A stretch of 56,050 nt of DNA from assembly GCA_031362085.1 (NCBI GenBank), contig JANLSA010000450.1:1-56050 (forward strand), read 5' to 3'. The notes under the pieces are model-generated. The model was given only the letters and a program-made list of their open reading frames with translations. It did not search any database and was not told the DNA's origin. The DNA comes from Bacteroidota bacterium. Its GTDB lineage: Bacteria; Bacteroidota; Bacteroidia; Chitinophagales; Chitinophagaceae. Positions 9,648-46,317 of this stretch are shown here, piece after piece; position 1 is the first letter of the stretch; each line of letters opens with the position of its first letter. The translations under genes and the position numbers were made by a program.

Positions 9648-10478
9648 ATGAACCTCTACAAAACCAAAGCCGGTATTGTAATAGAAAAGGAAAATCAATT
9701 CTATTCAATTTCCAATGAAAACTGGGATAGTTTTATTAATGATGATTCTTTGTTTCAAAAATCAGAGCAACTTACTCAATCATTGCCTGCTACTACAGGT
9801 AATCTGCTAAAAGATATACTTGCACCTGTAGGTTCTAACCAGGAATTATGGGCCTGTGGTGTTACATACTTGAGAAGTAAAGTTGGCCGGCAGGAAGAAA
9901 GTAAATCATCAGGTGGTGCAGATTTTTATGCAAAAGTTTATGAAGCGGAAAGACCAGAAGTTTTTTTTAAATCCAGTCCCCATAGAATTGTTGGCACAAA
10001 TGATTTTGTACGGATAAGAAAAGACTCTACCTGGGATGTACCAGAACCAGAGTTGACCTTAGTTGTTACCTCATCAGGAAAAATTATTGGTTACACCATC
10101 GGCAATGATATGAGCAGTCGGAGTATAGAAGGTGAAAATCCTTTGTACCTTCCCCAAGCTAAAACGTATGATAAATGTGCAGCATTGGGACCATGTGTTT
10201 ATGTGACTGATAAACCTCTTGACAGTAACACAATGATTCAACTTGAAATTAAGAGAAATCAGGTAATTGTTTTTAAAGATAATATCGCTATCAGCCAGAT
10301 GAAACGAACAGCAGAAGAACTAGTGTCTTTTGTTTATCGTGAATGTTCTTTTCCGCATGGTTGTTTAATTATGACCGGAACGGGGATTGTACCCGGAAGT
10401 GATTTCACTTTAAAAAGTGGCGATGAAATTAAAATTTCTATTGATGGAATTGGGGAATTGAAAAATATTGTTGAATAA
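9648..10478 (+). CDS. Fumarylacetoacetate hydrolase (FAH) family protein, 2-keto-3-deoxy-pentonate dehydratase (XylX/KdaD)-like
   Basis: The C-terminal half has the FAH pattern (WDVPEPELTLVV...IGNDMSSRSIEG...GTGIVPG). Sits next to the aldonate dehydratase and the lactonase. Confidence 0.75.
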   Translation: MNLYKTKAGIVIEKENQFYSISNENWDSFINDDSLFQKSEQLTQSLPATTGNLLKDILAPVGSNQELWACGVTYLRSKVGRQEESKSSGGADFYAKVYEAERPEVFFKSSPHRIVGTNDFVRIRKDSTWDVPEPELTLVVTSSGKIIGYTIGNDMSSRSIEGENPLYLPQAKTYDKCAALGPCVYVTDKPLDSNTMIQLEIKRNQVIVFKDNIAISQMKRTAEELVSFVYRECSFPHGCLIMTGTGIVPGSDFTLKSGDEIKISIDGIGELKNIVE

Positions 10479-10539
10479 AAACTCATTCATAGTAAACTTT
10501 AATACTCTTTGCCAATTGGCGGAGATGGGGGCTTAATAA

Positions 10540-11853
10540 ATGACATTTATCATCATCTTACTCGCTATTGCATTACAGGTTTTTCTTTCTGTAAAAAAAG
10601 TAAGCCCGTTTATATCACTGATTTTTGTAGCCATACTTACTGGTTTGTGTTTGGGCATTCAACCGGGTGCTTTAATTAAAACAGTGGAAAAAGGAGTAGG
10701 TAGCACATTGGGTGGGTTAGCATTAATCATTTGTCTTGGAGCTATACTGGGAAAGATTTTAGGAATAAGCGGAGCTGCTGAACAAATCTCAGCAACACTT
10801 ATTAAAAGTTTTGGACAAAAAAATATTCAGTGGGCAGTTTTACTCACCGGGTTTTTAATTGGCATACCACTTTATTATAATGCAGGTTTTGTCATTCTTG
10901 TTCCTTTGGTTTTTACATTAGCCAGAAAAACAGGACTGCCATTATTGTACATTGTTATACCGATGGCGGCTTCACTCAGCACCACACATTGTTTTTTGCC
11001 TCCCCATCCAGGCCCCGTTGTTTTGGTAAATGCATTTCATGCAAATATGGGAATGGTTCTTATTTATGGAATCATTATCGCTATACCAACAGTTATCATT
11101 GCGGGTCCTTTTCTTGGACGAATATTGCAAAGAATTAAAACAGATACGACTTCATTATTTTCAACTGAAGAAAATTCAGCAATAAAAAAATTACCCGGAG
11201 TATTTCCAAGTTTTATGATTGCATTGCTCCCGGTTTTTTTAATTACACTATCTGTACTTGCCAATACATTTCTTACAGAACCGTCTCTTTTTAAAACAAC
11301 TATCTTATTTATCGGCGATTCAACAATAGCATTACTCGTTTCGGTAATTGCAGCTATTTACTTTTTTGGATTACGAAACGGGCATAAAATGGAAACGGTA
11401 ATGAAATGGTTAAGCGATGCGATTGCTGGTATTGCTATGATTTTATTAATTATTACTGCGGGCGGCGTATTTAAACAAGTGCTGATTGATAGCGGCACTG
11501 GAGAATATATTGCATCCTTCAGTACAAAATGGCAAATGCCGCCATTACTATTTGGATGGGTTATAACGGCATTATTGCGAGTGGCAATTGGTTCTGCAAC
11601 AGTTGCTGGCATTACTGCTGCAGGAATCGTTTCTCCTTTAGTAGTTTCTGGCGTTGTCTCACCGGAGTTGATGGTATTGGCAGTTGGTGCAGGCAGTGTA
11701 TTCGGATCTCATATCAACGATTCGGGTTTTTGGATGTTCAAAGAATTTTTCAGACTAACACTTAAACAAACATTTCTTTCGTGGACAGTAATGGAAACTA
11801 TTATTTCTATTTTGGGTTTACTAGGTGTTTTACTACTTGAACTGTTTATATAG
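10540..11853 (+). CDS. GntP family (gluconate/aldonate:H+) permease
   Basis: 437-aa polytopic membrane protein. VEKGVGSTLGGLALIICLGAILGKIL and AGGVFKQVL are typical of GntP. Confidence 0.85.
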   Translation: MTFIIILLAIALQVFLSVKKVSPFISLIFVAILTGLCLGIQPGALIKTVEKGVGSTLGGLALIICLGAILGKILGISGAAEQISATLIKSFGQKNIQWAVLLTGFLIGIPLYYNAGFVILVPLVFTLARKTGLPLLYIVIPMAASLSTTHCFLPPHPGPVVLVNAFHANMGMVLIYGIIIAIPTVIIAGPFLGRILQRIKTDTTSLFSTEENSAIKKLPGVFPSFMIALLPVFLITLSVLANTFLTEPSLFKTTILFIGDSTIALLVSVIAAIYFFGLRNGHKMETVMKWLSDAIAGIAMILLIITAGGVFKQVLIDSGTGEYIASFSTKWQMPPLLFGWVITALLRVAIGSATVAGITAAGIVSPLVVSGVVSPELMVLAVGAGSVFGSHINDSGFWMFKEFFRLTLKQTFLSWTVMETIISILGLLGVLLLELFI

Positions 11854-11858
11854 TTTTT

Positions 11859-13001
11859 ATGAAAAAAATATCTTCCATTTTATGTTTAATTGTTATTTGT
11901 ATTATATATGTAAAATGCAACAGCAGCAGGCGGGCACAAACACACTCAGCTGCTAACAGCACATTAAAGGATGTTTATAAAGATTATTTTACAATCGGCG
12001 TTGCTGTTTCACCACAATCATTAAAAACAGATGAAGCAGGTTTAATAATTGAACAGTTTGGAAGTTTGACTCCAGAGAATGCAATGAAGATGGGACCTGT
12101 TCATCCGCAGGAAAAATTTTACAATTGGGCTGGAGGTGATTCGATTGCTGCATTTGCAAAACGAAATAATATGAAACTTCGTGGACATTGTTTATGCTGG
12201 CATAACCAGGTACCAGGTTGGTTTTTTACTGATTCATCAACGGTCCCAGCAAAACAAGTGAATAAGGAAGTTTTGTTATTGCGGTTGAAAGAACATATCA
12301 CTTCAGTTGTTTCGAGATATAAAGGAACTATCTATGCATGGGATGTAGTGAATGAAGTGATATCTGATAAAGCAGATGAATATTTCCGCCCTTCATTATT
12401 TTACCAGATCTGCGGCGAAGATTATGTTGAAAAAGCATTTGAATATGCACATGCAGCAGATCCCAATGCATTATTATTTTATAACGACTATAATGAAATC
12501 TCTCCTGTAAAAAGAGAAAAAATTATTAAGATGGTTAAAGGGTTGCAGGCAAAAGGAATTCCGATTCATGGAATTGGATTACAGGCACATTGGGCAACCA
12601 ATGAACCATCAGGCGAACAATTAGAAAAAACACTGGAAGATTTCTCAAAGCTTGATTTAAAAATACAAATTACAGAACTGGATATATCTGTGTATCCAAA
12701 ACAACACGAATCAAGAGAAAGAAAAGCTTCGGATTATGATACCACGTTTACTCCTGAAAAAGAAATGAAGCAACAGCAGGTTTATCAAATGTGTTTTAAG
12801 TTATTCAGAAAATACAAAGAACATATTACGGGTATTACATTCTGGAACATTTCTGACCGCCACAGTTGGTTAGATAATTTTCCGGTAAGAGAAAGAAAAG
12901 ATTATCCGTTATTATTTGATAAAAACTTAAAAAGGAAAAAAGCTTTTTGGGATGTAGTGAATTTTGATAGTGGCAAGCCCGAAGCAACAAAAGCTTTTTA
13001 A
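11859..13001 (+). CDS. Endo-1,4-beta-xylanase, glycoside hydrolase family 10, secreted or lipoprotein
   Basis: GH10 catalytic motifs WDVVNE (acid/base) and ITELDIS (nucleophile). N-terminal signal ending in C. Confidence 0.9.
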   Translation: MKKISSILCLIVICIIYVKCNSSRRAQTHSAANSTLKDVYKDYFTIGVAVSPQSLKTDEAGLIIEQFGSLTPENAMKMGPVHPQEKFYNWAGGDSIAAFAKRNNMKLRGHCLCWHNQVPGWFFTDSSTVPAKQVNKEVLLLRLKEHITSVVSRYKGTIYAWDVVNEVISDKADEYFRPSLFYQICGEDYVEKAFEYAHAADPNALLFYNDYNEISPVKREKIIKMVKGLQAKGIPIHGIGLQAHWATNEPSGEQLEKTLEDFSKLDLKIQITELDISVYPKQHESRERKASDYDTTFTPEKEMKQQQVYQMCFKLFRKYKEHITGITFWNISDRHSWLDNFPVRERKDYPLLFDKNLKRKKAFWDVVNFDSGKPEATKAF

Positions 13002-13003
13002 AA

Positions 13004-13243
13004 TTATTTTATCTCTTCATATTCGATATAATCACCGGGTTTCTCCATTGTCTTTTTCGGTTGCTCAGGCTTTGTTGTTTGTTCTTGTTGTTGATTCATA
13101 TGATCATTCATCCGCTCATTCATTTCCCGGAATCCCTTTTTTACCTGTTTGGTAGTACGATAAACAGGAACTATTACATCAAAAATAATTTTATAAGCCA
13201 GGTAAAACAGGAAGGCATAAAGTAGAATTCTAAAAACTGACAT
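13004..13243 (-). CDS. DUF4834-like small membrane protein
   Basis: MSVFRILLYAFLFYLAYKIIF TM helix followed by a polar, Q/E/K-rich tail ending GDYIEYEEI. The ORF is open to 13300, but the ATG at 13243 fits the family. Confidence 0.7.
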   Translation of the reverse strand: MSVFRILLYAFLFYLAYKIIFDVIVPVYRTTKQVKKGFREMNERMNDHMNQQQEQTTKPEQPKKTMEKPGDYIEYEEIK

Positions 13244-13355
13244 ATGCAAATTTAAGGAGGGATTACAAAAGAGAGGCGTTTCTATAACTAAGGGGGCCAT
13301 ACTTTAAATAATTATTTACTTTTCATAAAATTTTGGCTGAAAGCCGCCACATCCT

Positions 13356-13363
13356 TACATTTG
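13356..13363 (+). promoter_or_regulatory. Bacteroidota -7 promoter box (TAnnTTTG) for the rimP-nusA-infB operon
   Basis: tacatttg lies 55 nt upstream of the rimP ATG in a divergent intergenic region. Confidence 0.5.
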
Positions 13364-13378
13364 TGCCAGAAAGCTAGC

Positions 13379-13404
13379 AGAAGGGAACGAATTCGTTCCC
13401 TTCT
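13379..13404 (+). promoter_or_regulatory. Perfect 26-nt palindrome in the rimP-nusA-infB leader (candidate attenuator or leader hairpin)
   Basis: agaagggaacgaattcgttcccttct is followed by T-rich tcattttc and ends 14 nt before the rimP ATG. Confidence 0.5.
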
Positions 13405-13417
13405 TCATTTTCAATTC

Positions 13418-13888
13418 ATGAATGAAGGCAAACAAATACAAGTTCTGGAAAAAATTATTGGTAGTATTATAGACGCTACACCCGGTATTTTCCTGGTAGA
13501 AATGAAGATGCTACCCGGTAATAATATTAAGGTGTTTGTAGATGGAGACAACGGCGTATCAATTGACAAATTAGTCAAATACAACCGCAGTTTTTACAAA
13601 CAAATTGAAGAAAATGGCTTTTTCCCGGATGGCGATTTTTCATTAGAAGTTTCATCGCCAGGGCTTGATGAACCATTGATACTGCACCGCCAGTATTTGA
13701 AAAATATAAACCGGGATGTGGAAGTGGTAATGAAAGATGGAATTAAGTTAGAAGGGAAAATGGTGAGTGTACTGGAAAATGAAATAGTAATAAACGAAGA
13801 AAAAGGGAAAGGGAAAAAAAAGCAAACGATTGCTCACACCCTTCCTTATTCAGATATAAAATCAACTATAATAAAAATAAAATTTTGA
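13418..13888 (+). CDS. rimP: Ribosome maturation factor RimP
   Basis: FLVEMKM...IKVFVDGDNGVSIDK...LEVSSPGLDEPL motif; directly upstream of nusA. The ATG at 13418 is preferred over the upstream alternative start at 13361. Confidence 0.88.
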   Translation: MNEGKQIQVLEKIIGSIIDATPGIFLVEMKMLPGNNIKVFVDGDNGVSIDKLVKYNRSFYKQIEENGFFPDGDFSLEVSSPGLDEPLILHRQYLKNINRDVEVVMKDGIKLEGKMVSVLENEIVINEEKGKGKKKQTIAHTLPYSDIKSTIIKIKF

Positions 13889-13951
13889 CGATTCAGCAGC
13901 AAGTTCCGGCAACCTGTAATTTGCGATCTGAAATTTTAAATCGAAAACGTT

Positions 13952-15198
13952 ATGGCAAGTATCAATTTAATTGAAGCGTTTCAGGAATTTAAAGATGCGG
14001 AAAATATTGACCGCCCTACCATGATGAAAGTGGTGGAAGATGTTTTTAAACATTGCTTCGCAAAAAATATGGCAGCGACGAAAATTTTGATGTAATCGTA
14101 AATGCTGAAAAAGGCGATTTGGAAATCATACGTCGTCGTATGATTGTGGAAGATGGACAAGTAGAAGATCCATTAGCACAGATTGCATACAGCGATGCGG
14201 TAAAAATTGAACCCGATTTTGAAGTGGGTGAGGAATTATACCAGGAAATTGATTTGTTTGATTTTGGTCGCCGTGCTATTCTTGCTGCGAAACAAACACT
14301 GGCAAGCCGCATCAGCGATTTGAAGAAAAATGTATTGGCAAAAAAATATGGCGAACGGGTAGGCGATATTGTAAACGCAGAAGTTTACCAGGTTTGGAAA
14401 AAAGAAATTTTATTGCTTGACGAAGAAGGGAATGAATTGATATTGCCCAAAAGCGAACAGATACCACAAGACTATTTTAAAAAAGGAGAAAGCATCCGAG
14501 CTGTTGTAGCCAGGGTAGATATGAAAAATAATTCCCCGGTAATTATTTTATCAAGAACTGCCCCCGAGTTTCTGGCGAAATTGCTTGAAATAGAAGTACC
14601 TGAAATTTTTGATGGTTTAATTGTTATTAAAAAAATTGTTCGGGATCCGGGAGAAAGAGCAAAAGTTGCCGTAGAGTCTTTTGATGATCGTATTGATCCG
14701 GTTGGCGCATGCGTAGGTATGAAGGGAAGCCGGATTCATGGCATTGTTCGTGAATTAAAAAATGAAAATATTGATGTTATCAACTGGACAGCTAATACGC
14801 AGTTACTAATCCAGCGATCTTTAACACCTTCTAAAATTACCAGCATGGATCTGGATCAGGATAAAAAACATGCAAGTGTTTTTCTAAAACCCGATCAGGT
14901 TTCATTGGCTATCGGCCGCCGGGGTGTAAATATTAAATTAGCTTGTGAACTGACCGGATATGAAATTGATGTCTTCCGCGATAATGAAGGAGAAGTAGAA
15001 GAGTTTGATATAGACCTGGAAGAATTTAGCGATGAAATAGAACCCTGGGTAATAGAAGCATTAAAGAAAATTGGTTGTGATACCGGAAGAAGTGTTATGG
15101 CATTAACAGCAGAAGAGTTAGAACGCCGTACCGATCTTGAAAAAGAGACAATTGCGGAAGTAAGAAAAGTACTGGAAGAAGAATTTAAGCAAGAATAA
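13952..15198 (+). CDS. nusA: Transcription termination/antitermination factor NusA, interrupted by an apparent 1-nt frame break near 14045-14053
   Basis: The ATG at 13952 gives MASINLIEAFQEFKDAENIDRPTMMKVVEDVFK (NusA N-terminus) and stops at 14093-14095. The NusA body (LLRKKYGSDENFDVIVN..., S1 and KH domains) runs in the adjacent frame from 14053 to 15198. Confidence 0.85.
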
Positions 15199-39845: not shown

Positions 39846-40490
39846 GTGGAAGATTTTAAATTGTTTAAAAATGAGTTACAAAATATCATTACAAGAGATG
39901 ACGCTGAAGGGGAAAGTTATCTTATTAAAGCAGTCCAAACCTACCTTAAAACAATTCATCATGCAGGTGCAAAAACTGAAGACAAGCAGTTTACAAGATC
40001 AGAAGAAGAAAGGGCATTAATCCTTTATTCTGCTGAAAACAATTTGTGGATTGATGAAACAAATTTTGGCACTTTTATAACGGCAGGCGCCGAGCAGAAA
40101 GTATATTTTCCCGGGGATACAGATTATGTTTTAAAAATTTCCGATGCAATATTTTACACTTATTGGGTAGATTATTTCAATAATCTTCTCTTACATAATG
40201 CTTTTTTCAGTAATACCGCTTATGAACTGATTGGCTTTTACCAACACGATGAAAAACTATTTGCAGTTTTAAAACAATCATTTATAGAAATAACAGAATT
40301 GACGAATCTTGAAAACGTTAAGCAGTTTCTCCTGACAAATGGGTTTGAGAATAAAAAGAACAATGATTATTATCATCCGGTGCTTGGTATCATTTTAGAG
40401 GATTTACACGATGAGAATATTTTAACTAATAACGGGGTTTTATTTTTTGTGGATACAGTTTTCTTTCTAACGGATACTTTTTATGTTTAA
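39846..40490 (+). CDS. Hypothetical protein with small atypical protein-kinase-like motifs (possibly polyvalent-protein kinase-like); inserted between paaZ and the hydratase gene
   Basis: GTG start. GAEQKVYF...DYVLKI (Gly-rich loop / Lys-like) and ILEDLHDENILTNNGVLFFVDT (DLHxxN catalytic-loop-like plus D-T). The family assignment is inference only. Confidence 0.6.
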   Translation: MEDFKLFKNELQNIITRDDAEGESYLIKAVQTYLKTIHHAGAKTEDKQFTRSEEERALILYSAENNLWIDETNFGTFITAGAEQKVYFPGDTDYVLKISDAIFYTYWVDYFNNLLLHNAFFSNTAYELIGFYQHDEKLFAVLKQSFIEITELTNLENVKQFLLTNGFENKKNNDYYHPVLGIILEDLHDENILTNNGVLFFVDTVFFLTDTFYV

Positions 40491-41343: not shown

Positions 41344-42030
41344 ATGAAGCAAATTATTTCAATAGCATTTTTTTCATTGCTACTATTTTTTTCAGGTTGT
41401 AGTACGATGAAAAATTTATTATCACCCAGCGATGCAGAAGAGGCTATACGTGAGGCACTTTCTATCGGAAGTAATTTTGGCGGAAATGTATTGGGTCAAA
41501 AGGGGGCATTTTCAAAAAACACTTTGATTGACGCCTTGTTTCCTGAAGATATTCGTAAAGTGTTAAACACATTAGAAACATTGGGCTTAAGTAAAGAAGT
41601 TGACAGGTTTACAACTACACTTGGCGCAGCAGCAGAAAAAACGGCCGAGCAATCAGTTCCTGTTTTTTTAATGGGCATTAAAAAAATGAATTTTAAAGAT
41701 GCTGTAGGGATCGTTAAAAATGGAGGCACGTCCGGTACTGATTATTTAAGAAAAACAATTGGCGATACACTTCGGGCATCTATTACACCCGTAATGCACT
41801 CTGCACTGGAAGAATATAAATTGGAAACAGAATGGAATAAATTGGTAGCACCCGTGCAATTATTTGCCGGCGATAAATTGAATCTTAATTTGTCAAACCT
41901 GATGAGTGGGTTAGTTGCAAACCTGATGTTTAATAAAATTGCTGAAAAAGAAAGGGACATAAGAACAAAAGCAGAAGAAAGAAAAACGGTACTACTCCAA
42001 AAAGTTTTTGGCAGGGTTTGGGATAAATAA
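41344..42030 (+). CDS. DUF4197-like lipoprotein
   Basis: Lipobox FFSGC; helical repeats with AIREALSIGSNFGGNVLG, typical of DUF4197. Confidence 0.6.
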   Translation: MKQIISIAFFSLLLFFSGCSTMKNLLSPSDAEEAIREALSIGSNFGGNVLGQKGAFSKNTLIDALFPEDIRKVLNTLETLGLSKEVDRFTTTLGAAAEKTAEQSVPVFLMGIKKMNFKDAVGIVKNGGTSGTDYLRKTIGDTLRASITPVMHSALEEYKLETEWNKLVAPVQLFAGDKLNLNLSNLMSGLVANLMFNKIAEKERDIRTKAEERKTVLLQKVFGRVWDK

Positions 42031-42046
42031 AAAAGAACAAGTGAAA

Positions 42047-42685
42047 ATGATTCAACAATTTTCCGCAACAAATTTTTATAGATTCTGCGATCAACTTTCC
42101 CAAAAGGATAAAAATTTACAAACTATTATAAAACAGCACAGCTATCCTCCCATGTGGACCCGACCTGCAACATTTCAAACATTGATACTTACAATTCTTG
42201 AGCAGCAGGTTTCTTTAGCATCGGCTTATTCTGCATTTAAAAAACTTAAAGAGAAAATTGGTTTTGTCACACCTTCAAAAATTCTTTCATTATCCGATAC
42301 TGAATTAAGAGCATGCTATTTTAGCCGGCAAAAAATCGTTTATGTAAGAGAACTTGCCTATGCTATTCAAAACAAACAACTTAAAATTAAAAAACTTACC
42401 GGTAAACAGGATGATGAAGTTCGCCATGAATTAAAAAAGATAAAAGGTATTGGCGACTGGACAGTTGATGTATACCTGATGCATGCCTTGCAACGAACTG
42501 ATTTATTTCCGTTGGGGGATATTGCATTAGTTAATAGTTTGAAAGAGGTAAAACAATTACATCCTCAAATAACGAAAGAAGAAATGCTGATTATTGCCGA
42601 AGCTTGGCGACCCTACCGAACTATCGCTGCCATGATTTTGTGGCATGCATATATAAAGAAGAAAGGAATAAAGCTGCAGAGCTGA
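42047..42685 (+). CDS. DNA-3-methyladenine glycosylase II family (HhH-GPD, AlkA-like)
   Basis: ILEQQVSLASA and the helix-hairpin-helix IKGIGDWTVDVYLM, followed by the catalytic Asp context PLGDIAL. The ATG at 42047 is preferred. Confidence 0.8.
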   Translation: MIQQFSATNFYRFCDQLSQKDKNLQTIIKQHSYPPMWTRPATFQTLILTILEQQVSLASAYSAFKKLKEKIGFVTPSKILSLSDTELRACYFSRQKIVYVRELAYAIQNKQLKIKKLTGKQDDEVRHELKKIKGIGDWTVDVYLMHALQRTDLFPLGDIALVNSLKEVKQLHPQITKEEMLIIAEAWRPYRTIAAMILWHAYIKKKGIKLQS

Positions 42686-42774: not shown

Positions 42775-43698
42775 ATGAGCGACTACTCCTTCGGTTGGTT
42801 GCCTGATTATCCCGATATGCGGGATAGATCTGTCACTTACATGGAACCAAATGATAAGCCTGTAATTGATCCAAAAGAAAAAGTTTCTGTGCACCGGCTT
42901 TGGGCAAAAGCATCTGCTGTTTCAAAAAAAGCCGCAATAAAAAACCCGCCCAAAAAAGTTTTGGATTTGGAAAAATATTTTCCGCCGGTAGATAATCAGG
43001 AAGATATAAACAGTTGTACTGCACATGCAGGGACAGCATTAGTTGAGTATTTTGAAAACCGCTCCGGGGGAGATTATGAAAAAAAATCAAGATTGTTTTT
43101 ATATAAAGCCACCCGGAATCTATTGAAATTCGAAGGAGATACCGGCGCATTTCTTCGTACAACAATGAAAGCAATGGTACTGTTTGGTGTACCACCCGAA
43201 AAGTACTGGACTTATGATAAAGAAAACATGAATGCAGAGCCAACCCCTTTTTGTTATTCTTATGCACAAAATTATCAGGCAATTCAATATTACCGGCTCG
43301 ACACTTTTAATTATGAAAAGAATGTAGATATACAGAAAGAGCATTTGCTGGAAGAAATAAAACGCAATCTTGTAAAAGGACTTCCATTAATGTTTGGCTT
43401 TACTGTTTACAGTTGTTTTAGACATTGTAATGATGGGTTTGTAAAATACCCGACAGAAAAAAATAAACAACTAGGGGGTCATGCGGTAGTGGCCGTAGGG
43501 TACGATGACAGCGTAGAAATAACCGGCGAAGATGGGAAAAAAACAAAAGGGGCAATCCGGATTCGCAATTCCTGGGGTGCCAAATGGGGAGATAATGGAT
43601 ATGGTTGGTTGCCGTACGAATATATATTAAATGGATTAACAAAAGACTGGTGGAGTATTATCAAAAATGAATGGATAGATAATAAAGTATTTGAATAA
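42775..43698 (+). CDS. Papain-like cysteine peptidase (family C1), no signal peptide
   Basis: Complete catalytic set: Q...C in VDNQEDINSCTAHA, His in GGHAVVAVGYDD, Asn-Ser-Trp in IRIRNSWGAKWGDNGYGW. The N-terminus GWLPDYPDMRD is typical of bacterial cytoplasmic C1 homologues. Confidence 0.85.
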   Translation: MSDYSFGWLPDYPDMRDRSVTYMEPNDKPVIDPKEKVSVHRLWAKASAVSKKAAIKNPPKKVLDLEKYFPPVDNQEDINSCTAHAGTALVEYFENRSGGDYEKKSRLFLYKATRNLLKFEGDTGAFLRTTMKAMVLFGVPPEKYWTYDKENMNAEPTPFCYSYAQNYQAIQYYRLDTFNYEKNVDIQKEHLLEEIKRNLVKGLPLMFGFTVYSCFRHCNDGFVKYPTEKNKQLGGHAVVAVGYDDSVEITGEDGKKTKGAIRIRNSWGAKWGDNGYGWLPYEYILNGLTKDWWSIIKNEWIDNKVFE

Positions 43699-43730
43699 CC
43701 AATTTATAGAACCATTAAAATTTTATTGTT

Positions 43731-44573
43731 ATGGCAAAAGGATATGCACTAGCCATCGGTCTCAACAGTGTTGATAAAAAACACTATGATGGTTGGGATG
43801 GCCAATTGAATGTTTGTGAAAATGACGTGACTGATTTCTCTGCATTTTTAAAAAAGAAAAAAATCGCTGTTACCAGTTTGCTTACAAAGAATGCCACACG
43901 CAGCAATGTGTTAAATGGTCTTGATAAACTGGCCTCAAAAGCGGTAGCCGGAGATCTTGTTGTTGTGTTTTACTCCGGTCATGGTGGCAATGAAATACCA
44001 GACTTAAATAAAGATGAAGACGACCCCTGGAGCGATAAGTTTGATGAAAGCTGGTGCTTGTATGATGCGCAGTTAATAGACGATGAATTATATTTCCAAT
44101 GGAAAAAATTTAAAAAAGGAGTTCGCATTATTGTTGTAAGCGATAGCTGCTTTAGCGGGGATATCGTAAAGGCAATAAATGGCAGGCAGCAAAAATCAAA
44201 AGCTATGGAAACTGAGGTTGGGAATAATACCTGGAAAAAAAATATTAAAACATATAAAGCTATTTTAAAACAATTAGAATCAAAGGAGCTGCAATTATTT
44301 AAATCAACAAAGATTGATATGGTAAAGGCCACTTTGTTACAGATTTCAAGTAGCCAGGAAGGGCAGCCTTCCGTACCGGAATCACAATGGTTTCCCAATA
44401 ACAGTTTGTTTACAGGTGTTTTGTTGAAAGCATTTGCCGATACAAAATATAAAAGCTATGAACATCTGGTTTCAGAATTGAAAAAAATTATGCCCGATTT
44501 TCAAACTCCCAATGAACAGGTACTTGGAGAAAAGAAAATAAAAATTTTACTACAATCACCTTTTAAAATTTAA
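43731..44573 (+). CDS. Caspase-like cysteine peptidase (family C14), no signal peptide
   Basis: YALAIGLNSV start strand; catalytic His in VVFYSGHGG and Cys in IIVVSDSCFSG; p10-like LLQISSSQEGQPS...SLFTGVLL. Confidence 0.85.
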   Translation: MAKGYALAIGLNSVDKKHYDGWDGQLNVCENDVTDFSAFLKKKKIAVTSLLTKNATRSNVLNGLDKLASKAVAGDLVVVFYSGHGGNEIPDLNKDEDDPWSDKFDESWCLYDAQLIDDELYFQWKKFKKGVRIIVVSDSCFSGDIVKAINGRQQKSKAMETEVGNNTWKKNIKTYKAILKQLESKELQLFKSTKIDMVKATLLQISSSQEGQPSVPESQWFPNNSLFTGVLLKAFADTKYKSYEHLVSELKKIMPDFQTPNEQVLGEKKIKILLQSPFKI

Positions 44574-44577
44574 GACC

Positions 44578-46317
44578 ATGACAAACCGCAATACAATTGA
44601 CCTGATTATTAATACCGGAATGCCGGGTGTTTTAAAAGGAAGACAGCCCCAACCAGAATTTGTAAAAAAATTAAAAGCTAAAGGCATCAGCTTTGAGTTA
44701 AAAGATTTTAAAGGTGCAGATGTAACCTCAGTAAAAGCAAAGGGGGCAAAAAAATTAGTGTTGAGTAATAAAAAATATATAGCTAAAACCAATGTTAGTG
44801 AATCTGAAATTAATCCATGGGATCTTGCACATATTACAAATAAAAATATAGAAGCGCTGCAAAGCTTTGTAGAGCCGGATGCAATTAATGAACTGGTGGT
44901 GGATGATAAAATGCGGGGTGGCTTTAAAGGGATAGAAGATGAAATTATTGAACCAACTGATGATAGCGATAATTTTGATCCGGACTGGAACCCGCATAAA
45001 AATATTATCTGGCATCTGGTTGATGAATATTCGCAATTAAAAACTGCAAGGGATGCAGTAATGAATGTTGAGGGTACTATTCGCATCGGGCATTTAGATA
45101 CGGGTTATGGAAAAGGTCATCCGCAACTTCCCGCAAATCTTAATTTAAAACTGCAAAAAAATTTTGTAAAAGGGGAAGATATAAATGATGCAAGCGACAG
45201 AAAAATAAGTGGCTTGTTGCGAATGCCGGGTCATGGCACCGGTACCGGTGGAATACTGGCAGGAGATATCTATAAAACAGCAGATGCAAAATTTAATGAT
45301 TATCTCGGAGGCGCCCCGTTTGCCGAAGTAATTCCTTGCCGTATAGCAAACAGTGTTGTGTTATTAAAAACAAGTGCATTTGCCGAAGCAATAAAATACC
45401 TGACTGATCTCACTAACAATGGAACAACCATTCATGTAGTAAGTATGAGTATGGGGGGTGTGCCATCACAGGCTTGGGCAGATGCAGTAAATGCTGCTTA
45501 TGAAAGCGGGATAACATTGGTTACAGCAGCTGGAAATAATTTTAATGGATTACCAACAAAAAAATTAATTTATCCCGCACGGTTCAACAGGGTGATTGCT
45601 GCCTGTGGCGTTACCTACGATTATGCTCCTTATCATCATAAAAAATTAGGTGAAATGCAGGGATGCTGGGGGCCCAAACGATATATGACTAAGGCTCTGG
45701 CTGCATTTACACCCAATACACCGTGGGCAAGAATGAAAACAAAAACGATAAGTTTTTCTGGAGCAGGTACTTCATCTGCTACACCACAAATAGCGGCGGC
45801 AGCTGCCTGTTATTATAAAAAATATAAAAAACAACTGGATGCTTTACCTGAAGCATGGATGCGGGTAGAAGCAATAAGAAATGCATTATATAAATCTGCA
45901 CTCAAACTGGTGAAGTTTGCAGATGAAGGGTATGAAGTATATTTTGGAAATGGAATCATTCATGCAAAAGACGCTTTAGCTATTACAGTTCCATCCGTTT
46001 TGGCATTGAAGGCTATGAAAAGCAACGTGGATGATGTTCCTTTTTTCCCACTTCTTTCTATTTTGTTCAAAGAAAAAAAGAAACCTGTGAATACACAGGA
46101 ATTGCAAATGTTTAATGTAGAGCTGCAACAGTTGATACATAATTATGCAGATTTGCAAAAACTATTGGACGAAGATGAAAAAACGTTTGCAGAATTAGAT
46201 ATGAAAGAAAGGAAAAAATTTATGGATGCTGTTATCTCCAACCGAAGTGCATCCAAAACGCTTAAAAAATTTTTACAGGAGTATTATAATATTTTATCCA
46301 TTGCTAAGTTGAATTAA
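44578..46317 (+). CDS. Subtilisin-like serine peptidase (family S8) with an unassigned ~135-aa N-terminal and ~110-aa C-terminal extension, no signal peptide
   Basis: Catalytic triad contexts IGHLDTGY (Asp), PGHGTGTGGILAG (His) and GAGTSSATPQIAAAAA (Ser); oxyanion Asn in TAAGNN. Starts 4 nt after the caspase-like gene. Confidence 0.85.
   Translation: MTNRNTIDLIINTGMPGVLKGRQPQPEFVKKLKAKGISFELKDFKGADVTSVKAKGAKKLVLSNKKYIAKTNVSESEINPWDLAHITNKNIEALQSFVEPDAINELVVDDKMRGGFKGIEDEIIEPTDDSDNFDPDWNPHKNIIWHLVDEYSQLKTARDAVMNVEGTIRIGHLDTGYGKGHPQLPANLNLKLQKNFVKGEDINDASDRKISGLLRMPGHGTGTGGILAGDIYKTADAKFNDYLGGAPFAEVIPCRIANSVVLLKTSAFAEAIKYLTDLTNNGTTIHVVSMSMGGVPSQAWADAVNAAYESGITLVTAAGNNFNGLPTKKLIYPARFNRVIAACGVTYDYAPYHHKKLGEMQGCWGPKRYMTKALAAFTPNTPWARMKTKTISFSGAGTSSATPQIAAAAACYYKKYKKQLDALPEAWMRVEAIRNALYKSALKLVKFADEGYEVYFGNGIIHAKDALAITVPSVLALKAMKSNVDDVPFFPLLSILFKEKKKPVNTQELQMFNVELQQLIHNYADLQKLLDEDEKTFAELDMKERKKFMDAVISNRSASKTLKKFLQEYYNILSIAKLN

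Follow-up and report, generated by a model that had tools for sequence, protein, structure and literature searches.

What purpose might be served in a bacterial cell by three proteases of unrelated catalytic classes, each apparently cytoplasmic, whose genes follow one another on the same strand with almost no DNA between them? The question is raised by a 56,050-nucleotide stretch of DNA from a member of the Chitinophagaceae (Bacteroidota bacterium; GenBank assembly GCA_031362085.1, contig JANLSA010000450.1), referred to here, at its full length, as the window. An earlier note, made from the sequence alone, had described in it a papain-like (C1), a caspase-like (C14) and a subtilisin-like (S8) peptidase gene and had put them forward as a candidate proteolytic-cascade or cell-death/defence module. 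Its description of the locus has held. An open reading frame (ORF) listing and a script reproduced the coordinates exactly, with gaps of 32 nucleotides between the C1 and C14 genes and 4 nucleotides between C14 and S8; the trio is indeed flanked by an alkA-like HhH-GPD glycosylase gene, 89 nucleotides upstream, and by a convergent fabG gene, 19 nucleotides downstream; every Pfam score behind the three family calls exceeds its gathering threshold; and the catalytic residues said to be intact were all located by script and are kept in orthologues, with the exception of one C1 histidine that is discussed below. We found that the three genes are a real, conserved and co-inherited unit, and that their linkage is old. 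They are not the isolated oddity for which they were taken but one architecture of a wider family centred on the S8 protein, and their sequences and associations point to a module, probably for self-destruction or defence, in which proteases are the only components.

The linkage of the three genes was followed with an alignment of the S8 protein, which yielded 355 relatives in a scan of reference genomes. The best 80 of these 355 loci were examined, and neighbourhoods were compared by ORF clustering, the ORF calling in the fetched loci being crude (compared loci bear numbers with the prefix L). The order C1-C14-S8 is seen in the sister clade of the window (L001, L008-L014; about 62% identity in S8), in L033 (49%, in an unrelated context), in Hymenobacter fodinae (L045; 38%), where the C1-containing protein has 787 residues, and in a soil metagenome (L093). 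A member of the Saprospiraceae (L002) has the permuted order C1-S8-(228 residues)-C14-Endonuclease_NS. Co-occurrence of the three families in other genomes, which the earlier note had proposed as a check, is therefore found in at least five unrelated genomic contexts, at S8 identities of 38-62% and with the order mostly conserved. Chance adjacency of three unrelated protease genes has a single point in its favour, that no obvious partner is seen in the window, and the recurrence of the trio across unrelated contexts excludes it for practical purposes: we regard its probability as negligible. Nor is the arrangement an assembly artefact, because a metagenome assembled independently (L174) shows this gene order too, with a C14 protein that is 96% identical. 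In a neighbour-joining (NJ) tree of the S8 domain, which is approximate, the partner sets follow the phylogeny and the C1+C14 lineages are basal in the Bacteroidota short-form clade. No recurrent fourth component was found downstream of the trio loci; the only similar pair there, of 211 residues in L004 and 186 residues in L045, has no match in the window.

A second set of loci was anchored on the conserved downstream GH3-family gene and not on the proteases, and consisted of 80 metagenomic loci with GH3 identities of 76-91%. The trio is present in 4 of the 31 loci that span the interval from fabG to the enoyl-CoA hydratase (ECH) gene, inserted between HhH-GPD and ECH, and the remaining 27 are without it; a fifth carrier (L131) is cut before ECH. 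When the carriers are compared with the window, their flanking proteins are 71-92% identical (70-92% over all fetched loci) and the trio proteins 58-63%. The trio of the window lies at a different junction, between fabG and HhH-GPD, and L095, which of the fully spanning relatives is nearest to the window, shares its flanks, DUF4197 included, but not the trio. Patchy presence, the use of two junctions and the lower identity of the trio proteins together indicate repeated gain or loss of the cassette and a faster evolution than that of the genes around it. These comparisons suggest that the trio is a horizontally mobile accessory cassette, and its patchy presence among close relatives also favours a role in conflict or cell death.

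The GH3–fabG–HhH-GPD–ECH–paaZ block (L095-L171) is a hotspot for small insertions. Other inserts in it are an M16 peptidase pair (L134), an FGE-sulfatase pair (L096), an AbiEii/OLD-like AAA_15/AAA_21 ATPase (L114) and, between HhH-GPD and ECH, pairs of proteins of about 190 residues that have no assignment (L133, L134, L138, L154). The inserts are mixed and include only one AbiEii/OLD-like ATPase, and we rejected the idea that the variable block is a dedicated defence island. The HhH-GPD gene adjoins the S8 cassette in both trio insertion variants (42008-42685 of the window; 9766-10404 of L001), and an HhH-GPD gene also lies, divergently and in an unrelated context, beside a cassette of the C25 type (7039-7626 of L003). 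This adjacency may be a coincidence or may mark a preferred insertion neighbourhood.

Within a larger modular family the S8 protein is the component that stays constant, and its partners come in no fewer than five sets, spread over no fewer than six named phyla or lineages (Table 1). Architecture B is the commonest form in the Bacteroidota (L003-L007, L015-L040, L061; for example 8001-11518 of L004) and has no PADLOC match; in L004 it is followed by proteins of 164 and 211 residues without assignment and then by a 1,065-residue KAP NTPase. Architecture C (L050-L087), exemplified by L052 with its S8 gene at 9800-13567 and its partner gene at 13577-15193, has a partner protein whose N-terminal 75 or so residues match PADLOC models of the metallo-β-lactamase (MBL) type (LmuA, 2e-10; Avs1a, 6e-4), together with a weak Pfam match to Lactamase_B. 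The C-terminal extension of about 650 residues in these long S8 proteins has no match in Pfam and no sequence match in the PDB, and its comparison by hhalign with profiles of the C25-like, C14, C1, MBL, 386-residue and small proteins gave probabilities of 0.3% or less; it is a candidate sensor. In L078 a GDPD phosphodiesterase domain is fused to the C-terminal end of the long S8 protein. Architecture C fits the 'MBL clade 3' that adjoins S8 subtilisin-like proteases (Evans et al. 2025, PMC12642450). Architecture D, which in L041 (9929-20264) includes a CoxE-like VWA protein and a pYEATS protein of 707 residues, is similar to the ternary MoxR-vWA systems described by Kaur, Burroughs, Iyer and Aravind (2020, PMC7159879), with an S8 protein added. 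Endonuclease_NS adjoins the S8 family only in L002, L044 and L049, and no relatives of the family were found in the viral contigs of IMG/VR. The S8 relatives thus keep company with nSTAND1, EAD1-SIR2, EAD1/EAD11, AAA-VWA-pYEATS, KAP NTPase, Endonuclease_NS and MBL proteins, the set of parts from which the NTPase-dependent conflict systems described by Kaur et al. are built, and this association favours a conflict or cell-death role for the family.

Table 1. Features of the protease trio in the window and architectures of the S8-centred family
Feature	Positions in the window, or occurrence	Strand	Remarks
C1 peptidase gene	42775-43698	+	ATG start, 307 aa
C14 peptidase gene	43731-44573	+	ATG start, 280 aa
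S8 peptidase gene	44578-46317	+	ATG start, 579 aa
C1 N-terminal conserved segment G-W-L-P-D-Y-P-D-M-R-D (aa 7-17)	42793-42825	+	Trio orthologues and alignment with 3OIS
S8 N-terminal β-α-β-β-α-β unit (aa ~6-100)	44593-44877	+	I9-type prodomain-like; AlphaFold2 and Foldseek
S8 linker (aa ~101-165)	44878-45072	+	Mostly low-confidence/disordered in AlphaFold2
S8 catalytic domain (aa ~166-465)	45073-45972	+	Pfam; Foldseek against subtilisins, E ~1e-15
S8 C-terminal family-specific helical domain (aa ~466-579)	45973-46314	+	AlphaFold2; about six helices at ~490-575
Architecture A: C1 + C14 partners	Window, L174, L001/L008-L014, L033, L045, L093, L002		
Architecture B: S8 – Peptidase_C25-like (~500 aa) – small ~87 aa protein	About 25 Bacteroidota loci		
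Architecture C: ~1,200 aa S8 with ~650 aa C-terminal extension, usually then ~530 aa protein	Planctomycetota, Acidobacteriota, Gemmatimonadota, Verrucomicrobiota, Proteobacteria		
Architecture D: S8 – C14 (550 aa) – AAA – VWA – 852 aa with second caspase domain – pYEATS	L041, L042, L046		
Architecture E: S8 – 386 aa protein without assignment – Trypsin_2 – EAD1-SIR2 – nSTAND1	Spirosoma, Fibrella		
N-terminally extended S8 flanked by one-cluster proteins	L047, L057		EAD1/EAD11 shown for the L047 member

The constant component is itself a protein of some complexity. Pfam recognises it as PF00082 (Peptidase_S8; 4e-23, residues 168-459; 82.6 bits against a cutoff of 21.8), with the triad D174 (HLDTG), H219 (GHGTGT) and S399 (GTSSATP) and the oxyanion residue N320 (AAGNN); these catalytic residues are invariant across 52 homologues, and more than 700 full-length homologues were found. 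An AlphaFold2 model based on the alignment of the 52 sequences has a predicted template modelling score (pTM) of 0.87. In it the N-terminal unit is formed by strands at 6-16, 39-43, 64-74 and 97-100 and by helices at 27-34 and 80-89. The longest Foldseek alignments of the model (478-516 columns) are with unautoprocessed pro-subtilisin E (3WHI) and pro-Tk-subtilisin (2E1P/2Z2Z), so that the N-terminal unit falls, on superposition, in the place of a prodomain of the I9 type; the Pfam scan gave no match to the I9 family in this protein. According to the model, then, S8 looks like a pro-subtilisin that is never secreted and that has its prodomain in place. The linker that follows, of low confidence over residues 101-153 or so, has a predicted local distance difference test score (pLDDT) below 50 at residues 107-130 and holds a D134-x-D136-W137-x-P139...W145 motif that is invariant in the 52 sequences, making it a candidate processing or docking site. 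Conserved motifs of the C-terminal helical domain are retained even in long forms from other phyla. The proposal that this domain is an EAD or death-like adaptor is unsupported, the best PDB fold match of the domain modelled alone (pTM 0.70) having an E value of 2.5. Among solved structures the best sequence match of S8 is PDB 9rk9_B, a 'Subtilisin-like serine protease' of 332 residues (E 4.5e-10), and its best solved sequence relatives include the intracellular subtilisin proteases (ISPs) 2X8J, 2XRM, 2WV7, 7Y6M and 7XR8. For the trio proteins NCBIfam gave only sub-threshold matches (mycosin, caspase_w_EACC1).

In the case of the C1 protein the Pfam family is PF00112 (Peptidase_C1; 4e-13; 50.3 bits against a cutoff of 20.7) and the catalytic set consists of Q75, C81 (NSCTAH), H236 (GGHAV) and N265-S-W. 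It matches PDB 3OIS at 1.4e-27, N-terminal motif included; that structure was deposited as 'Cysteine protease', with 291 residues, and we take it to be xylellain of Xylella fastidiosa. Judged by the Gln-Cys-His-Asn set and the homology to 3OIS, the C1 protein is a xylellain-type peptidase of the papain family C1A. Its N-terminal segment aligns with GYIPDIADIRD of 3OIS, the common pattern being G-[WY]-x-P-D-x-x-D-x-R-D, and is followed by a variable Lys-rich linker that reaches to about residue 67; segment and linker are a candidate pro-segment or cleavage region. In the xylellain structure the N-terminal region is reported to sit in the active-site cleft, and a corresponding inhibitory role for the segment in C1 is treated here as a lead and not as a result. 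The catalytic residues are kept in every orthologue that is complete at those positions, except in L033 (8075-9013), where the Cys and Asn are kept and Pro occupies the position of the catalytic His (…PEGPAVLAVGYDD…). The L033 protein may be an inactive regulatory copy, or the change may be a sequencing error. A weaker PDB match is Lpg2622 of Legionella, presumably a secreted protein. The xylellain-type family is very large and is highly conserved across phyla and in methanogens, a spread that agrees with the extensive horizontal gene transfer described by Kordis and Turk. One member, encoded by a genome of the Ignavibacteriales (L088 6001-9361, CP065001) and 51% identical to the protein of the window, is followed by a pYEATS protein of 200 residues and, after a gap, by Endonuclease_NS; on gene content this is another conflict-like context for the family.

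The C14 protein belongs to PF00656 (Peptidase_C14; 6e-18; 65.9 bits against a cutoff of 21.4) and has its dyad at H84 (SGHGG) and C140 (DSCFSG), which is kept in 17 of the 17 C14 partner proteins that were aligned. It is a full-length homologue (2e-52) of PDB 3BIJ, the Geobacter protein GSU0716, which was deposited as an uncharacterised protein. On the strength of the His-Cys dyad and this full-length match it is assigned to the compact bacterial caspase family, as a GSU0716-like member. A variable Lys-rich insert occupies residues 147-198 or so, between the p20-like and p10-like parts. Sampled loci with C14 identities of about 44-63% are of the trio type. Two sampled C14 proteins near 42% identity belong to tandem caspase pairs without S8 or C1 (L091 4122-6840, 611 and 279 residues; L092 6001-7706, 276 and 276 residues), and these pairs may be two-caspase modules in their own right.

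Where would these proteins act, and what would keep them silent? The earlier note had found neither a signal peptide nor a transmembrane segment in any of them, and this is borne out by hydropathy, with the adjacent DUF4197 lipoprotein as control: the maximum Kyte-Doolittle scores over 19 residues are 0.83, 1.25 and 1.39 for C1, C14 and S8 and 2.0 for the N-terminus of the control, and the scan detected no stretch resembling a signal peptide or a transmembrane segment in the three proteases. Export through a β-sandwich C-terminal domain of the type IX secretion system (T9SS), another of the checks proposed, receives no support either, since no such domain was found and the C-terminus of S8 is predicted to be a helical bundle. 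The statement that no inhibitor is visible has to be revised: S8 carries an I9-like prodomain and C1 keeps the N-terminal segment that it has in common with 3OIS. For these two reasons latency is probably built into the cassette proteins.

How might such a set of proteins operate? We give an even chance to the reading that the trio is a sensor-less, all-protease variant of the S8-centred protease–effector modules that serve in conflict, abortive infection or regulated cell death. The S8 protein would be made in the cytoplasm as a latent pro-subtilisin to which the I9-like prodomain stays attached, because no secretion step separates prodomain and protease. Its latency would be relieved by a trigger, for which loss or cleavage of the prodomain linked to infection, an input through the C-terminal helical domain and an unlinked sensor are all candidates. 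Active S8 would then cleave both of the cysteine proteases, likely in the Lys-rich linker of C1 and in the inter-subunit-like insert of C14, and the C1 and C14 enzymes licensed in this way would degrade cellular (or invader) proteins broadly, with an arrest of growth or death as the outcome. S8 is placed upstream because it is constant and because its partners are variable and effector-like, which makes this the most economical model. What the analysis shows is that the genes are linked and the linkage conserved, that the active sites are intact, that export signals are missing, that the cassette is accessory, that S8 has a predicted prodomain-like fold and what company its family keeps. From this evidence, which is that of comparative genomics and structure prediction, we infer a role in defence or cell death, a trigger, an order for the cascade and the sites of cleavage, the analogue being the SAVED-CHAT→PCaspase system considered below. 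A bolder version, and in our estimate a distinctly unlikely one, would make the trio a self-contained, three-tier proteolytic death switch in which the pro-subtilisin is the sensor, its prodomain or C-terminal domain acting as a guard or decoy that infection would remove or bind, and the two executioner proteases, which differ in catalytic class, amplify the signal.

Several observations weigh against this favoured reading. The xylellain-type C1 family is huge and its members are often solitary in their genomes, archaeal genomes included, and the more distant GSU0716-like C14 proteins have neither S8 nor C1 beside them; either partner, evidently, is able to function without the trio. The orthologue in L033 has lost its catalytic His. 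The window has no sensor NTPase, no EAD domain and no recognised defence gene, PADLOC returns only a partial caspase match, and the PDB fold search detected no death-like or EAD fold in the C-terminal helical domain of S8. The block that holds the cassette is a general variable spot and not a defence island. The direction of the cascade has one argument behind it, that a constant component is the activator and variable components are the effectors, and the S8 tree on which the partner sets are arranged is only approximate.

Could the same conflict role be performed with other wiring, the proteases being parallel effectors or C14 or C1 standing upstream of S8, under the control of an unlinked sensor? 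S8 relatives do co-occur with separate sensors (nSTAND1, KAP NTPase, AAA-VWA) and with EAD adaptor proteins, the gene of an EAD-linked effector can lie apart from that of its NTPase (Kaur et al., PMC7159879), tandem caspase pairs exist that lack any S8, and S8 might itself be a target, at the invariant Asp-rich motif of its linker. We nevertheless consider this rather unlikely: no EAD domain was detected in the three proteins of the window, S8 is the only component that is constant across all of the architectures, and activation is the task of the protease in those S8/trypsin/caspase–MBL modules that have been published (Evans et al., PMC12642450). A role in ordinary intracellular proteolysis, for housekeeping or under stress, as a set for protein turnover or peptide processing suited to a particular niche, for example in starvation or stationary phase as in the case of the Bacillus intracellular subtilisins, would dispense with conflict altogether. 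It would suit the presence of intracellular subtilisins among the best solved sequence relatives of S8, the metabolic genes that surround the cassette, the mixed and mostly non-defence character of the other inserts in the block, the frequent occurrence of C1 homologues on their own and the absence of a sensor from the window. The trio is, however, found in 4 of 31 loci and is more diverged than its flanks, the S8 relatives are repeatedly accompanied by STAND, EAD, SIR2, pYEATS, MBL and EndoNS genes, and an I9-like prodomain of about 100 residues together with a C-terminal helical domain is an architecture different from that of the ISPs, so that we think this explanation unlikely.

Non-classical export, in the service of nutrient acquisition or of interaction with a host or competitor, is very unlikely. 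Xylellain-like peptidases have been hypothesised to be secreted in phytopathogens, I9-type prodomains are typical of secreted subtilisins, and the C1 protein has its weaker match to Lpg2622, which is presumably secreted. Against this, the trio has no signal peptide, lipobox or transmembrane segment where the control lipoprotein was detected, the C-terminus of S8 is helical and not a T9SS β-sandwich, and both the close spacing to the gene of a caspase-like enzyme (32 and 4 nucleotides) and the conflict-type relatives speak for action in the cytoplasm.

If the trio is indeed a sensor-less protease–effector module, every one of its components is a protease, three catalytic classes are represented and there is no dedicated sensor, which raises the issue of how such a system senses and how it stays silent. 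Cell death under the control of proteases is coming to be seen as a principal logic of immunity in prokaryotes, as in gasdermins, PCaspase, type IV Thoeris and the MBL/Pepco/EACC1 modules. A three-tier switch, were it to exist, would give bacteria a counterpart of initiator and executioner caspases, one that operates without an NTPase, a nucleotide second messenger or a non-protease effector. Should the proteins turn out to perform ordinary intracellular proteolysis, a functional context would be gained for two widespread orphan families, the xylellain-type C1 peptidases and the GSU0716-type caspases. Most architectures of the S8-centred family are uncharacterised, among them the C25-like protein with its small companion, the extension of about 650 residues and the C-terminal helical domain. 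At 3.5 kb the cassette is compact and readily testable.

The genes identified as neighbours of the trio in the window encode HhH-GPD, DUF4197, ECH, Kinase-PolyVal and FabG proteins. The ORF of the DUF4197 lipoprotein (41344-42030) overlaps that of HhH-GPD (42008-42685) by 23 nucleotides if the latter begins at its TTG codon, and the actual start of HhH-GPD may lie further downstream. A scan for promoter and terminator consensus sequences gave counts near those of shuffled sequences, with a consensus that does not cover Bacteroidota promoters. Between the paaZ-like and enoyl-CoA hydratase genes lies a gene for a Kinase-PolyVal protein of 214 residues (39846-40490, plus strand; PF18762, 1e-58), a kinase typical of the polyvalent proteins that mobile elements encode. 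The near-identical assembly L174 has this gene and none of the 80 GH3-anchored relatives does, so that it looks like a lineage-specific insertion.

In what respects does the cassette resemble systems that are already known? PADLOC assigned the three proteins to no known system, its 'caspase' model giving a partial match to C14 (4e-12), and it likewise returned no system for the partner proteins of relatives, where partial matches were limited to 'caspase', 'subtilase' and MBL proteins of the LmuA/Avs1a type; the trio is thus unclassified in a defence-system scan, as had been anticipated. The earlier note had also seen no NTPase sensor beside the trio, and none is present in the three proteins or in the neighbouring genes of the window. 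The connection with gasdermins that it had raised has found no link: Pfam showed no gasdermin among the window neighbours, PADLOC no gasdermin system, and none was detected in the partner proteins of relatives that were scanned. Maturation of a ribosomally synthesised and post-translationally modified peptide or a bacteriocin was considered and dropped, because none of the architectures has a linked gene for a precursor, a modification enzyme or a transporter. The literature, searched also with combinations of Pfam names and with pYEATS, yielded no description of a C1+C14+S8 cassette. The structures 3OIS and GSU0716 have not been described as belonging to a three-protease operon, the substrate of xylellain is reported as unknown, and distant members of both families occur without S8.

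The ISPs have a short N-terminal extension of about 18 residues, with a LIPY/F motif, as their sole regulatory element and are not known to have partner proteases. The cassette S8 resembles them (2X8J, 2XRM, 2WV7) in being cytoplasmic and in lacking a signal peptide, and ISPs are kept latent by their N-terminal extension. It differs in having an N-terminal region of about 165 residues (an I9-like prodomain of about 100 residues and a linker of 65), a C-terminal helical domain and partners that are always present and variable; no LIPY/F motif was seen in its residues 1-40.

A further analogy is offered by the type III-B CRISPR/CBASS hybrid of Haliangium ochraceum, in which SAVED-CHAT cleaves and activates PCaspase, and PCaspase degrades many proteins to bring about abortive infection (Steens et al., 10.1101/2023.06.23.546230). 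The genes are clustered and the proteins cytoplasmic in both cases, and the C14 protein may be compared with PCaspase by its size and by the position of the dyad, H79/C146 in the compact caspase of that system and H84/C140 in the cassette. In the Haliangium system the upstream enzyme is a cysteine protease of the CHAT type that senses cA3 through a SAVED domain, and the locus also encodes a sigma-factor substrate and the inhibitor PCi; in the cassette the candidate upstream enzyme is a pro-subtilisin-like S8 protein without a recognisable sensor, there is an additional papain-like protease and there is no linkage to CRISPR or CBASS. Type IV Thoeris is a further case of a licensed caspase-like protease, one that is activated by a nucleotide made by a TIR protein and that degrades the proteins of the cell indiscriminately.

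Evans et al. (2025, PMC12642450) have described modules whose effectors, of the MBL, α/β-hydrolase, Pepco and EACC1 types, are licensed by proteases that are trypsin-like or caspase-like. The MBL is a nuclease zymogen that is licensed by its protease, and one MBL clade is paired with proteases of the S8 type; a caspase-like protease with no effector protects E. coli from phages, and papain-like partners are nowhere mentioned. In those modules the neighbour of the S8 protease is an effector that stays latent until a site-specific cut licenses it, and protease and partner are phylogenetically congruent. The cassette has the same adjacency and co-evolution, given its gaps of 32 and 4 nucleotides and partner sets that track the phylogeny of S8, and the long-form relatives of its S8 protein adjoin a protein of the MBL type, as in those modules. 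Its partners, by contrast, are two proteases and not an MBL nuclease, an α/β-hydrolase, Pepco or EACC1, and its S8 protein is a short form without the extension of about 650 residues or a fused sensor. Sensors fused or linked to the protease (STAND, Hachiman, DRT and the like) were not found in the trio or among the window neighbours and are seen only in relatives (nSTAND1, KAP NTPase and, as a candidate, the unassigned extension of about 650 residues).

Several peptidase domains had been recognised by Kaur et al. (PMC7159879) as elements that set thresholds for, or activate, toxic effectors. S8 appears there only within NucA polypeptides, papain only as a peptidoglycan peptidase fused to EAD1, and the C1+C14+S8 trio is not described. 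Their 'System 3', which is mostly alphaproteobacterial, combines a NucA endonuclease with a trypsin-like peptidase, both of which are missing from the window; parts of that type (Endonuclease_NS, EAD1, nSTAND1, caspase, trypsin and an occasional S8) are seen around the S8 family in L002, L043, L044, L047 and L049. EAD domains have no Pfam match in the trio proteins, and the C-terminal domain of S8 has no significant fold match. The claim in the earlier note that this is not a described system has therefore to be divided. Systems of its kind have already been published by Steens et al., Evans et al. and Kaur et al., and cascades in which one protease activates another are known, as are S8-linked effector modules; it is the composition of the cassette, all-protease, of three catalytic classes and sensor-less, that appears to be undescribed.

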